From: Clostridia bacterium
GTDB lineage: Bacteria > Bacillota > Clostridia > TANB77 > CAG-508
Assembly (NCBI GenBank): GCA_017934475.1
Contig: JAGBJN010000010.1
Span: 11,411 to 75,410, forward strand
Direction: 5' to 3'
DNA length: 64,000 bases
A model generated the notes under the pieces. The model was not told the DNA's origin. It ran no database searches and saw only the letters and a program-made list of their open reading frames with translations. A program made the translations under genes and the position numbers. Shown one piece after another: positions 3,232 to 6,826 of this stretch (positions are counted from its first letter, which is position 1; every line of letters starts with the position of its first letter).

Positions 3232-3260
3232 TTGACAAATCATAAAAAATATAGTAAACT
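3232..3260 (+). promoter_or_regulatory. sigma-A-type promoter of the tRNA operon
   Basis: TTGACA, a 17-nt spacer, then TAAACT, about 35 nt upstream of tRNA-Lys. Confidence 0.5.
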
Positions 3261-3294: not shown

Positions 3295-3370
3295 GGGTCA
3301 TTAGCTCAGGTGGTAGAGCACTTGACTTTTAATCAAGTTGTCCGCGGTTCGAATCCGCGATGGCTCACCA
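3295..3370 (+). tRNA. tRNA-Lys(UUU)
   Basis: 76-nt cloverleaf, anticodon loop CTTTTAA, T-loop GGTTCGAATCC, encoded CCA. Confidence 0.95.
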
Positions 3371-3416
3371 TACCAAGGATTTAAGTATAAACTTAAGTCC
3401 TTGGAAATTTATATAA

Positions 3417-3491
3417 GGCCCCTTGGTCAAGCGGTTAAGACATCGCCCTTTCACGGCGGAGACATGGGTTCGATTCCCGTAGGGGTCACCA
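3417..3491 (+). tRNA. tRNA-Glu(UUC)
   Basis: 75-nt cloverleaf, anticodon loop CTTTCAC, encoded CCA. Confidence 0.95.
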
Positions 3492-3500
3492 ATTTTATAT

Positions 3501-3810
3501 GCCACTTTAGCTCAGATGGTAGAGCAACTGACTTGTGGGATAGATAAGAAACGTCTTATTTTGAACTATCTTGCACCTTTAAATGGAAACGTTTAAAGTG
3601 GACACCGCTAATTCGGGGAAGACTAAGTGCGAAAGCATATGTTAATCCCGAGCTAGAAAAGAAATTTTCGAGTGTAGAGACTTTATACGGTGTACCTAAA
3701 GCATTAGCTAGGGTAAAGAGAAAGTCCAGGCTACAAACAGTCAAATGGTAGTGAAAACTATAGTAGTATGAATCAGTAGGTCGCCCGTTCGATTCGGGCA
3801 AGTGGCTCCA
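3501..3810 (+). tRNA. tRNA-Thr(UGU) interrupted by an intron (exons 3501-3536 and 3771-3810)
   Basis: The joined exons give a perfect 76-nt cloverleaf: acceptor GCCACTT/AAGTGGC, anticodon stem ACTGA/TCAGT, loop CTTGT|AA, encoded CCA. Confidence 0.85.
3537..3770 (+). ncRNA. group I intron (IC3-like, tRNA anticodon-loop type), 234 nt, no internal ORF
   Basis: The 5' exon ends in T and the intron ends in G. The core strings AATTCGGGGAAGACTAAGTG and GAGTGTAGAGACTTTATACGGTGTACCTAAAGCA closely resemble, as I recall them, the Azoarcus and cyanobacterial tRNA intron core. GACACCG (about 3601) can pair with CGGTGT (about 3688), consistent with P3. Confidence 0.75.
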
Positions 3811-3818
3811 ATACTTAA

Positions 3819-3852
3819 AATCAGGCTTGTAATTGTACTTGCTTGATTTTTT
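3819..3852 (+). terminator. intrinsic terminator after the tRNA operon
   Basis: 8-bp stem AATCAGGC/GCTTGATT with one G-U pair, followed by TTTT. Confidence 0.45.
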
Positions 3853-3883
3853 GTTATATAGATTTTATTTTGAGGTGATGATT

Positions 3884-4297
3884 ATGAATTGTATAAATTG
3901 TAATAAACCGATAAATAAACGTTCTAAATATTGTAGTATTAAATGTCAAAAAGAATATCAATATAAGATGTATATTGATAAATGGAAAGATAATAAAATT
4001 GACGGAATGAGAGGAGAATATCAAATTTCATTATATATAAAAAAATATTTATTTGAAAAATATAATAAAAAATGCGCAAGATGTGGGTGGGGAAAAGTAA
4101 ATCAATATACCAACAATATTCCTTTAGAAATAGAACATATAGATGGTAATTATAAAAATAATAATGAAAATAATTTAATATTATTATGTCCAAATTGTCA
4201 TTCTTTAACAAGTACATATAAAGGTGCAAATTTAAATAAAGGAAGGAAGTCGAGGAAGAAATATGCAAACAATAGTATATTTAATAAGGCATTCTAA
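3884..4297 (+). CDS. HNH endonuclease with an N-terminal zinc ribbon
   Basis: Zinc-ribbon motif CINCNK...CSIKCQ, then RCGWG...IPLEIEHIDGNYKNNNENNLILLCPNCH (HNH motif). Start chosen at the ATG 8 nt after GAGG. Confidence 0.8.
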   Translation: MNCINCNKPINKRSKYCSIKCQKEYQYKMYIDKWKDNKIDGMRGEYQISLYIKKYLFEKYNKKCARCGWGKVNQYTNNIPLEIEHIDGNYKNNNENNLILLCPNCHSLTSTYKGANLNKGRKSRKKYANNSIFNKAF

Positions 4298-4895
4298 AAA
4301 AATCAATAAAGAAGATATTGATTACAGTTTAAGTAATGAATCTAAACAAATCCAAAATGAAAAAATACCTTTAAGCATAGAAGGTGAAGAAAGAGCAAAG
4401 AAGTTATCTGAATTAGAAGAATTTGCCGATATAGAATCAATATATTCTAGTAATTATACAAGAACTATACAAACTGCAAAATATTTAGCAGAAAAAAGAA
4501 ATTTAAGAATAAATGTTGATGAAAGATTTAATGAAAGAAAGCATGGAATATTTAATGGAGAAATAAACCTAGAAAGATATTACCAAGAAGATTTTAAGAA
4601 TCCTGATGGAGAAAGTCCAAAAGAAGTAAGAAAGAGAATGGTTGAAGGATTTGAATATGCAATTAATAATAATAAAGGAAAGAAAATTGCTATATTTACT
4701 CATGGTGCAGCAATGACAATGTTATTAACAAAATGGTGCAAATTAGAACATATTACAAATGATACGAAAAAAACAATTAGTTATAAAGGCAAAATTCTTG
4801 TAGATAAAATATTTAATCAACCGGAAATATTTAAATTAATATTAGATGAAAATAATGATATAATAAACATAGAAAATATTGAAGTAAACTGGTAA
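4263..4895 (+). CDS. histidine phosphatase family protein (phosphoglycerate-mutase-like)
   Basis: VYLIRHS near the N-terminus (RHG-type motif) and FTHGAA later. Overlaps the 3' end of the HNH gene by 35 nt. Confidence 0.8.
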   Translation: MQTIVYLIRHSKKINKEDIDYSLSNESKQIQNEKIPLSIEGEERAKKLSELEEFADIESIYSSNYTRTIQTAKYLAEKRNLRINVDERFNERKHGIFNGEINLERYYQEDFKNPDGESPKEVRKRMVEGFEYAINNNKGKKIAIFTHGAAMTMLLTKWCKLEHITNDTKKTISYKGKILVDKIFNQPEIFKLILDENNDIINIENIEVNW

Positions 4896-6256: not shown

Positions 6257-6826
6257 TTATAAATTTAAAATTTTGCCGACTATTGTAAAATCTTGTTCTG
6301 GCAAAACATATACATCATCATAATTCTTATTATCTGGTTTCAAAGTTATTATATCTTTCCTAACTATAAATCTTCGAATTAGAAATTCACCATCATATTC
6401 AAAAAGACCAACTTCCTTATTTTTTAAAGGTGAGCATAGTTCAACATAAGCATAAGTATCTTTTTTTAAATATGGTGCCATAGAATCATCTTGAACTTTA
6501 AGTGCAAATGATGCAGTTTGTATTTCAGAAGGAACATCAATTAACTCTGAAATAGAATCAACTGCAGGAATTTTGCTATAAGAAATATGATCTAATAAAT
6601 TATTTCTTTTTTGAGTAATTTGTAACTCCTTATCATAACAATTCATTAAATTTTGATAAGGTACATCAAGGGCTTTACTAATACTTTTTAAAGCTTTATG
6701 ACTAGGGTTTCTTTCACCTTTTTCAATATGGGTAATATGACCTATGTTTATCTTTGTTCTTTTTGAAAGTTCAACTTTTGTAATATTCTTATCTTTTCTG
6801 ATTTTTTCAATCATACTGCCTAACAT
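6257..6826 (-). CDS. XRE-HTH / S24 peptidase (LexA/CI-like) repressor
   Basis: N-terminal HTH (ITKVELSKRTKINIGHITHIEKGERNPS) and a C-terminal S24-like VQDDSMAP motif. Confidence 0.8.
   Translation of the reverse strand: MLGSMIEKIRKDKNITKVELSKRTKINIGHITHIEKGERNPSHKALKSISKALDVPYQNLMNCYDKELQITQKRNNLLDHISYSKIPAVDSISELIDVPSEIQTASFALKVQDDSMAPYLKKDTYAYVELCSPLKNKEVGLFEYDGEFLIRRFIVRKDIITLKPDNKNYDDVYVLPEQDFTIVGKILNL

Follow-up and report, generated by a model that had tools for sequence, protein, structure and literature searches.

A tRNA-Thr(UGU) gene split by an Azoarcus-type group I intron in gut Clostridia, with a candidate partner endonuclease gene beside it

We report on a 64,000-nucleotide (nt) stretch of DNA, called the window below, from the genome of a Clostridia bacterium (GenBank assembly GCA_017934475.1, contig JAGBJN010000010.1, positions 11,411 to 75,410), in which the gene for tRNA-Thr(UGU) is interrupted by a 234-nt intron. 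The locus is very probably a functional tRNA-Thr(UGU) gene in which a small group I intron of the Azoarcus/IC3 type, without an open reading frame (ORF), separates tRNA position 36 from position 37. The structure of the intron and the conservation of this structure follow from comparison of 27 sequences, and guanosine-initiated self-splicing to the mature tRNA is to be expected from membership in this intron family. The intron is an optional element, present in some members of this gut Clostridia clade and absent in others, and a neighbouring gene for a free-standing HNH endonuclease may be functionally linked to it.

Results

The interrupted gene was first noticed in a first-pass annotation made from the letters of the window, which described 3501-3810 as a tRNA-Thr(UGU) gene split by a 234-nt intron at 3537-3770, with joined exons folding into a 76-nt cloverleaf with a UGU anticodon. 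All of its sequence statements proved correct. When run in intron mode on the unspliced DNA, ARAGORN recovered a split tRNA-Thr(tgt) with the output 'Intron Length: 234, Insertion Position (36-37): cttgt-Intron-aatca', and on the joined exons it found a 76-nt tRNA-Thr(tgt) whose cloverleaf is regular and whose CCA is encoded. Exon 1 has the sequence GCCACTTTAGCTCAGATGGTAGAGCAACTGACTTGT, with the terminal letters ...ACTGACTTGT, and exon 2 the sequence AATCAGTAGGTCGCCCGTTCGATTCGGGCAAGTGGCTCCA, with the first letters AATCAGT; the intron begins with GGGATAG and ends with GTATG. With the insertion point marked, the anticodon loop is CUUGU|AA and the junction of the ligated exons CUUGU|AAUCA. The longer exon-spanning string is ACTGACTTGTAATCAGT, and the junction string of intronless genes is GCAACTGACTTGTAATCAGTAGGT. 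A U as the last exon nucleotide and a G as the last intron nucleotide had also been claimed, and both are dictated by the tRNA sequence: because T36 of the gene differs from G270 and G37 from A271, the splice boundaries are fixed, and U-1 of the 5′ splice site and the terminal guanosine of the intron (omega-G) are therefore forced. A shifted splice site was considered and excluded, as the flanking bases differ and a single junction restores the anticodon loop.

With default settings, neither ARAGORN nor the Rfam tRNA model detected the split tRNA-Thr, and only the neighbouring tRNA-Lys(UUU) and tRNA-Glu(UUC) were called. In the 31 long ORFs of the window, ACA accounts for 72% of the threonine codons and for 50 per 1000 codons overall, and the demand for tRNA-Thr(UGU) is therefore high. 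No second tRNA-Thr gene was present in the 64-kb window, nor in the 245 kb of intron-bearing loci inspected altogether (window included), which represent a small part of each genome. Should the split gene be the sole source of tRNA-Thr(UGU), the decoding of ACA would depend on splicing.

To place the intron among its relatives, one genome per GTDB species was scanned with the degenerate core pattern AATTCGGNGAANNCTAAG-N35-65-GTAGAGACT, which yielded at least 120 loci. In 27 of these, ARAGORN in intron mode identified a tRNA-Thr(UGU) gene with a 220- to 244-nt intron at 36/37, and in 25 of the 27 the tRNA-Thr lies directly behind tRNA-Glu(UUC), as in the window. Among the matches listed, the carriers are metagenome-assembled genomes (MAGs) of uncultured gut Clostridia, Clostridium sp. 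CAG:492, Clostridiales UBA7001, and two MAGs labelled 'Bacilli', in which the split tRNA-Thr follows tRNA-Val. Identity to the window intron was 76-83% over the full alignment and 78-88% in local BLAST alignments (at least 26 genomes). The first-pass annotation knew of no such intron in a tRNA-Thr(UGU) gene of a Clostridia-like genome; the intron recurs across a clade of low-G+C gut Clostridia and is thus not peculiar to this genome.

A secondary structure comprising the tRNA and the intron helices P1 to P9 was drawn by hand and tested on the window sequence and then on an alignment of the window with 26 further intron-bearing tRNA-Thr(UGU) loci (27 sequences). As listed in Table 1, all helices are formable in the window sequence, including the P3/P7/P4-P6 core, and every pair of P1 is standard. 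The minimum free energy fold of the 310-nt precursor recovered the tRNA stems and P1, P1a, P2, P4, P5, P5a, P6, P8, and P9b, and was more stable than 100 of 100 shuffled sequences (z = -3.2).

Table 1. Features of the split tRNA-Thr(UGU) locus in window coordinates; statements on conservation refer to the alignment of 27 sequences.
Feature	Position	Strand	Remarks
Promoter-like site TTGACA-17-TAAACT	3232..3260	+	consensus match; about 35 nt 5′ of the tRNA-Lys/Glu/Thr cluster
tRNA-Lys(UUU)	3295..3370	+	first in cluster; ARAGORN, Rfam tRNA
tRNA-Glu(UUC)	3417..3491	+	directly 5′ of split tRNA-Thr; ARAGORN, Rfam tRNA; Glu-Thr tandem kept in relatives
tRNA-Thr(UGU) exon 1	3501..3536	+	tRNA positions 1-36; last three letters are the anticodon UGU, with U36 as U-1 at the 5′ splice site
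Group I intron, IC3/Azoarcus type	3537..3770	+	234 nt, no ORF; omega-G at 3770
P1 and extension	3534..3575	+	exon U34-G35-U36 with A75-C74-G73 (3575-3573); GGGAUAG 3537-3543 with CUAUCUU 3566-3572
P1a	3544-3559	+	extra hairpin capping P1; 6 of 6 pairs covary
P2	3577..3598	+	hairpin, GAAA tetraloop L2 at 3586-3589; 9 pairs, 7 changed on both sides, 99.6% paired
P3, 5′ strand	3602..3607	+	ACACCG, pairs with CGGUGU 3688-3693; 98.8% paired
P4	3612-3618 with 3646-3652	+	invariant
P5	3621-3623 with 3641-3643	+	one pair seen as A-U, G-C, U-A, and G-U
P5a	3627-3638	+	GAAA cap; CUAAG/UAUG receptor-like internal loop (J5/5a) between P5 and P5a
P6	3653..3672	+	hairpin, GAAA loop at 3661-3664; 5 of 7 pairs changed on both sides
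P7, 5′ strand	3677..3682	+	G(A)GACU, A3678 bulged; pairs with AGUCC 3723-3727; pseudoknot with P3
P3, 3′ strand	3688..3693	+	CGGUGU, partner of 3602-3607
P8	3695..3713	+	hairpin with 11-nt-receptor-like motif, CCUAAA...UAGGG here, CCUAAG...UAUGG in most relatives and Azoarcus
P7, 3′ strand	3723..3727	+	AGUCC, partner of 3677-3682
P9 domain	3731..3766	+	outer helix 3731-3734 with 3763-3766, small P9a hairpin, P9b with GAAA tetraloop L9 at 3753-3756
tRNA-Thr(UGU) exon 2	3771..3810	+	tRNA positions 37-76, encoded CCA included
HNH endonuclease gene	3884..4297	+	137 amino acids, free-standing; 73 nt downstream of exon 2; candidate trans homing endonuclease

In the alignment, 98.7% of 2529 cells were paired under this structure, compared with 33-41% when the 3′ partners were slid by one to three columns. 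Changes on both sides were found for 40 of the 95 pairs, and none of 500 shuffles reached the observed pairing or covariation. Covariation was seen in P1, P1a, P2, P3, P5, P5a, P6, P8, and P9. The P1 helix was paired in all sequences, with three pairs changed on both sides, one P3 pair switched from C-G to U-A in seven sequences, and the helices of the P9 domain (helices 14-16) were 96-100% paired with compensatory changes. Three elements at the splice sites did not vary in any of the 27 sequences: the wobble pair between U36 (3536) and G73 (3573), flanked by G35-C74 and U34-A75; the exon block around the insertion site, GCAACTGACTTGT|AATCAGTAGGT; and omega-G. The exon stems covaried as well (four acceptor pairs and three T-stem pairs), which argues that the exons are under selection as a working tRNA and that removal of the intron is hence required. 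Retention of the structure through compensatory changes across 27 genomes indicates long-term selection for folding.

The peripheral motifs of the IC3/Azoarcus type are present at the sequence level, namely GAAA on L2 and L9 and receptor-type loops in P8 and J5/5a. Summarised over the sequences, the P8 motif reads CCUAAR...UAKGG, which we take to be a receptor of the 11-nt type. By analogy with the Azoarcus ribozyme, the GAAA loops of P2 and P9 presumably dock into the receptors of P8 and J5/5a.

Similarity to the Azoarcus intron extends to the primary sequence. A global alignment with the tRNA-Ile2 intron of Azoarcus olearius showed 63% identity over 189 aligned positions; the P4/J4-5/P5 string AAUUCGGGGAAGACUAAG is shared, and the P7 strands GUAGAGACU...AGUCC are identical. 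The two core strings of this intron that the first-pass annotation had cited are accurate and occur in the Ile2 intron as given in the supplement of the survey by Williams (bioRxiv 2020, doi 10.1101/2020.01.27.920355). In a permissive local search of 411 nt, the Rfam group I intron model RF00028 matched 3547-3744 over its full length with 35.1 bits (E = 1.8e-7).

Two points weigh against or limit the assignment to group I. With the gathering threshold applied, RF00028 gave no match to the intron in the whole window, because 35.1 bits lie below the curated cut-off of 50. In addition, the invariance of P4 and P7 means that covariation says nothing about these two helices; P7, presumed to be the guanosine-binding helix, had five of five pairs conserved without covariation. 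The same search gave 39.3-63.5 bits for homologous bacterial tRNA introns, with 51.2 bits, just past the cut-off, for the Thr orthologue in Clostridium sp. CAG:492; the window intron had the lowest score of all homologues tested. The gathering cut-off is an operational threshold and no defining property of group I introns. According to the Williams survey, the Rfam model used there (cut-off then 40 bits) was built on 12 seeds without a bacterial one among them, and the survey applied cut-offs of its own of 18-20 bits. Taken with the ARAGORN result, the full-length RF00028 match, the similarity to Azoarcus, and the compensatory changes in P1-P9, the group I assignment made in the first-pass annotation is supported.

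The low RF00028 score could be taken as a symptom of decay, in which case the window copy would be a disabled pseudogene with an intron that has lost splicing, and ACA would be read by an intact tRNA-Thr(UGU) encoded elsewhere. In favour of this explanation, only 64 kb of the genome were examined, and the window carries two private substitutions, at 3711 and 3730, at otherwise invariant positions. Neither of these lies in a core helix, however, and all core helices are intact: G3711 is read as an unpaired position in the P8 receptor, and G3730 lies in J7/9, where Azoarcus also has a G. Moreover, five other species share these exons with 100% identity, the cloverleaf formed by the exons is perfect, the structure is preserved by compensatory changes across the 27 genomes, and the 245 kb of intron-bearing loci contained no second tRNA-Thr. 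On the sequence evidence the window copy thus appears free of signs of decay, and we regard a pseudogene as very improbable.

A functional gene would be expressed as follows. The split tRNA-Thr would be transcribed jointly with the upstream tRNA-Lys and tRNA-Glu. Upon folding of the intron, P1 would pair the anticodon nucleotides U34-G35-U36 with the internal guide GCA, placing U36 in the U.G wobble, and the core would assemble from the P3-P7 pseudoknot and the P4-P6 domain, with the P2 and P9 GAAA tetraloops facing the receptor-like loops of P8 and J5/5a, as in Azoarcus. Exogenous guanosine would attack after U36; omega-G would then take its place in the P7 site, and exon ligation would give the 76-nt tRNA.

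To find alleles without the intron, metagenomes were scanned for an uninterrupted tRNA-Thr(UGU) behind the same 3′ end of tRNA-Glu. Intronless Glu-Thr tandems with the same exons were found on at least 120 contigs, mostly in the synteny DUF1858 - tRNAs - SDR. In a neighbour-joining tree built from the SDR protein encoded next to the tRNA genes, loci with and without the intron interleave: the nearest neighbours of the window are intronless, and among the matches listed the closest SDR belonged to an intronless locus for 9 of 18 intron-bearing loci.

The HNH protein encoded downstream of the split tRNA-Thr matched Pfam HNH with 23.2 bits (cut-off 21.4) and HNH families of PHROG with E values down to 6e-19. 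A sequence search of the PDB gave no close relative, only marginal matches of the McrA type. The family has at least 1871 close homologues in gut metagenomes, and the 120 listed were 72-87% identical. In eight of eight sampled contexts with enough upstream DNA, an intron-containing tRNA-Thr was located immediately upstream of the HNH gene. Among the 27 intron-bearing genome loci, a full-length HNH gene follows the tRNA in nine, is 1.7 kb away in a tenth, and is reduced to short remnants in four; in the remaining loci no HNH was present and the SDR gene is directly next.

The comparison of the two kinds of alleles revealed an association. Among the matches listed, 10 of 24 intron-bearing loci had a full-length HNH gene, compared with 0 of 107 intronless loci that could be evaluated (Fisher p = 7e-9); dereplication on the SDR sequence left 7 of 19 and 0 of 63 (p = 1.3e-5). 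HNH remnants occurred on alleles of both kinds; at the intronless loci, 28 of 107 carried remnants of 20-41 amino acids, including N-terminal pieces and internally deleted forms. This distribution suggests, with moderate confidence, that the intron was repeatedly gained and/or lost and that it is functionally linked to the HNH gene.

The restriction of intact HNH genes to intron-bearing alleles suggests collaborative homing, in which the free-standing HNH endonuclease would act in trans for the ORF-less intron of tRNA-Thr(UGU) and the two would form a pair in bacterial chromosomes, with the anticodon arm of uninterrupted genes as the candidate cleavage site. The layout expected for trans homing, an ORF-less intron with a free-standing homing-type endonuclease adjacent, is present in the window and in nine further species-level loci. 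The HNH enzyme might cut intronless tRNA-Thr(UGU) alleles, and repair from an intron-bearing donor might copy the intron, and often the HNH gene too, into the cut allele. The intron could thereby shield its carrier from cleavage, and an intact HNH gene might be tolerated only together with the intron. Such a model explains why intact HNH genes occur only where the presumed target is interrupted and why decayed copies occur on both alleles. It is the reading that we prefer, but we put it forward tentatively, as a possibility somewhat short of an even chance.

Several observations count against this proposal or limit it. Within-species polymorphism of the intron was not seen, the closest pairs of intron-bearing and intronless loci being about 85% identical in SDR. 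More than half of the intron-bearing loci (14 of 24) lack an intact HNH gene, so that the intron persists there without the nuclease, and the remnants at intronless alleles show that the two elements can uncouple. Part of the association could stem from shared ancestry, as the loci are phylogenetically dependent and the metagenome matches incompletely dereplicated. Finally, among the at least 120 genome loci no HNH gene was present beside other intron-bearing tRNA genes (Tyr, Asn, Leu, and others) or beside the Thr loci of the 'Bacilli' MAGs, and the association therefore lacks an independent replicate.

Coincidence combined with shared ancestry is accordingly the main rival of collaborative homing. 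The intron would be real and splicing but immobile and inherited vertically, its patchiness would reflect repeated precise losses, and the HNH gene would be an unrelated selfish or leftover entrant in the spacer of an intron-bearing ancestor. Besides the loci with an intron and no intact HNH gene and the remnants beside intronless alleles, the synteny of the whole neighbourhood fits vertical descent, and the HNH homologues are all close relatives whose sampled contexts represent a single locus, with no second association. The absence of full-length HNH from all 107 intronless loci speaks against coincidence, though, since many of these loci are as near to HNH-bearing loci as the latter are to one another; survival of an intact nuclease only together with the intron is predicted by a nuclease targeting the uninterrupted tRNA gene and not by chance co-location. 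The two 'Bacilli' MAGs also fit poorly with vertical inheritance, as their exons are 75% and their intron 78% identical to those of the window, with an identical anticodon arm, which hints at lateral spread of the intron. We judge coincidence with vertical descent to be nearly an even bet.

The persistence of the intron in many lineages without an intact nuclease gene would also be compatible with co-option as a regulator, with splicing efficiency (for example in response to the GTP or Mg2+ pool) gating the most-used threonine tRNA. Given the high share of ACA codons, the supply of this tRNA could limit translation. Close relatives are intronless, however, which argues against an indispensable regulatory role, and outside the standard IC3 helices nothing resembling a ligand-binding appendage was seen. 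A regulatory function is in our view highly unlikely.

Discussion

The classical hosts of bacterial tRNA introns are the genes for tRNA-Leu(UAA), tRNA-fMet, tRNA-Ile(CAU), and tRNA-Arg(CCU), a list kept in a 2014 review (Hausner). The first-pass annotation named the same four, and this view is outdated. The Williams 2020 survey covered about 80,000 genomes, found 5292 split tRNA genes, and expanded the tRNA/position classes from 4 to 21. Its seed alignment has three classes for Thr (Thr.5Ug, Thr.3Ug, and Thr.2Ug), and Thr.5Ug is one of the 17 classes added to the classical four. The window intron has the features of Thr.5Ug: the host is a tRNA-Thr, the insertion follows the fifth nucleotide of the anticodon loop, and U is found at -1 and G at omega.

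Our species-representative scan agrees with that survey. Among the matches listed, the same core was found in introns of genes for tRNA-Met/Ile(CAU), Leu(CAA, UAA, CAG), Phe, Asn, Ser(UGA, CGA), Tyr, Val(CAC), Pro, Arg(UCU, CCU, UCG), and Thr(GGU), so that the breadth of tRNA hosts goes well past the classical four. These hosts, at least a dozen isoacceptors besides Thr(UGU), are from Proteobacteria, Acidobacteriota, Chloroflexota, Planctomycetota, Patescibacteria/CPR, Verrucomicrobia, and Firmicutes; examples are loci L005 (Phe), L020 (Asn), L027 (Ser), L073 (Tyr), L092 (Val), L074 (Pro), and L063 (Thr(GGU)). At some loci the core matched and ARAGORN placed no split tRNA around it: L033 and L087 ('uncultured Bacilli' MAGs), L017, L039, L044, L072, L076, L079, L085, L098, L115, and L120. 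L087 has two core matches. The hosts at such loci could be an unusual tRNA, a transfer-messenger RNA (tmRNA), or something else.

Beyond the Williams survey, whose per-phylum counts were not readable, we found nothing specific in the literature on tRNA-Thr group I introns in Clostridia or Firmicutes; the Hausner review, the tRNADB-CE paper, and a 2025 intron database do not mention such an intron. As far as the accessible sources go, the kind of intron and a Thr class at 36/37 were thus already known, and no description of the Thr(UGU) lineage of low-G+C gut Clostridia was found. What is new in our analysis is the optionality of the intron and its HNH neighbour.

The closest known counterpart is the IC3 intron in the pre-tRNA-Ile(CAU) of Azoarcus (Ile2.5Ug). 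As the first-pass annotation had stated, it occupies the same slot, tRNA position 36/37 after nucleotide 5 of the anticodon loop, and the two introns bear the same 5Ug label in the nomenclature of the Williams 2020 seed alignment. Both introns have a U-1.G wobble, three exon base pairs in P1, an omega-G, and no ORF; besides the core strings mentioned above, they share the GAAA loops on P2 and P9 and the CCUAAG/UAUGG-type receptors in P8 and J5/5a. They differ in size (205 nt in Azoarcus versus 234 nt here) and in host, a betaproteobacterium there and a tRNA-Thr(UGU) gene of a Clostridia-like gut bacterium with 26.5% G+C here. Moreover, the window intron has an added 7-bp P1 extension, a P1a hairpin, a small P9 hairpin, and A/U-rich helices. 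The Thr.5Ug seed Rba53 of the Williams survey differs from the window intron in having a Thr(GGU) gene as host, an exon ending ...GGU, and G+C-rich helices; it resembles the SAR116 locus L063 of our scan.

The introns in cyanobacterial and plastid tRNA-Leu(UAA) and in cyanobacterial tRNA-fMet also belong to IC3, and their sporadic distribution has been attributed to loss and lateral transfer. They occupy other positions (Leu.3Ug and fMet.2Ug in the Williams nomenclature) and carry their nuclease, where present, inside the intron, whereas the intron described here is ORF-less and its candidate nuclease is encoded outside the tRNA gene.

The same layout of a free-standing endonuclease and an ORF-less intron is found in the collaborative homing systems of phages, exemplified by psbA/F-CphI of cyanophage S-PM2, T7-like phages, and mobE/I-TevIII of T4. 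In these systems the target of the endonuclease is the insertion site of the intron, and the intron therefore protects its carrier; at the loci compared here, intact HNH genes were found only together with the intron. All of the described cases concern phage protein-coding genes, whereas the target here would be a bacterial chromosomal tRNA gene. We know of no such pair outside phages and of none that targets a tRNA gene, and if collaborative homing is confirmed, this pair would to our knowledge be the first in both respects. It would also represent an intermediate stage that has been proposed for the origin of endonuclease-carrying mobile introns.

We also looked for a phage relative of the locus. 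A blastn search of 50,697 phage genomes found none; it yielded only short matches (at most 23% of the query), which fell in tRNA-Thr exons or in the core of other introns from phages. On IMG/VR viral contigs the intron core occurred 56 times and never in the Thr.5Ug lineage, so that a phage vector for the window intron is unsupported. On 26 of the 56 contigs (numbered within L254-L309), ARAGORN called an intron-split tRNA (Met/Ile, Gln, Leu, Arg, and others). According to the Hausner review, phage group I introns are all located in protein-coding genes. The split tRNA genes on the viral contigs could be the first tRNA introns of phages, or host DNA on prophage contigs.

For genome annotation, the locus has a practical consequence. 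With standard tRNA finders, genomes and MAGs of this clade appear to be without a tRNA for their commonest threonine codon, which distorts estimates of the tRNA complement and of completeness. Azoarcus-type ribozymes are common in low-G+C bacteria of the human and animal gut and occur in many more isoacceptors than the textbook four, which supports the Williams survey and extends it to a tRNA-Thr(UGU) lineage of gut Clostridia. As a very A/U-rich small ribozyme, the window intron can be compared biochemically with the G+C-rich Azoarcus model. The main scientific interest is in the combination, at one conserved locus, of alleles with and without the intron and of every stage of HNH decay (intact, decayed, and absent). 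The clade thereby makes the cycle of group I intron invasion, decay, and loss directly testable in bacteria.

Other features of the locus

The promoter-like site upstream of the tRNA-Lys/Glu/Thr cluster (Table 1) might conceivably be its promoter, as judged from the consensus match; sites of this kind are not more numerous than expected from shuffled sequence. A perfect 14-bp hairpin (CCAAGGATTTAAGT...ACTTAAGTCCTTGG, 3373-3404, plus strand), flagged by the terminator scan, fills the spacer between tRNA-Lys and tRNA-Glu. It sits within the presumed tRNA operon and may serve as a signal for processing or cause attenuation. Right behind the CCA of tRNA-Thr, between the tRNA operon and the HNH gene, a hairpin AUCAGGC...GCUUGAU followed by UUUUUU (3820-3853, plus strand) has by eye the look of an intrinsic terminator; it is absent from the list of the automatic scan, its loop being too long for the scan rules.

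The HNH gene is separated from the SDR gene by a gene of the histidine phosphatase family (4263-4895, plus strand), which overlaps the HNH 3′ end by 35 nt. By tblastn, no counterpart was present at this position in at least 120 genome loci, and the gene appears to be an insertion specific to the species of the window. Two type IV secretion-like genes lie on the minus strand just 5′ of the tRNA cluster (651-2707); one (651-992) codes for a pilin of the TrbC/VirB2 type, the other (1007-2707) for a coupling protein of the TrwB/TraD type. Most relatives, with or without the intron, have the latter gene in synteny, and it therefore looks like a conserved chromosomal feature of the clade and not like a recent mobile element. 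A few genes past the tRNA cluster, a LexA-like repressor with a helix-turn-helix domain and a peptidase S24 domain is encoded on the minus strand (6257-6826) and is kept in the relatives inspected. As pure speculation, it might come into play if the HNH nuclease causes a DNA-damage response.

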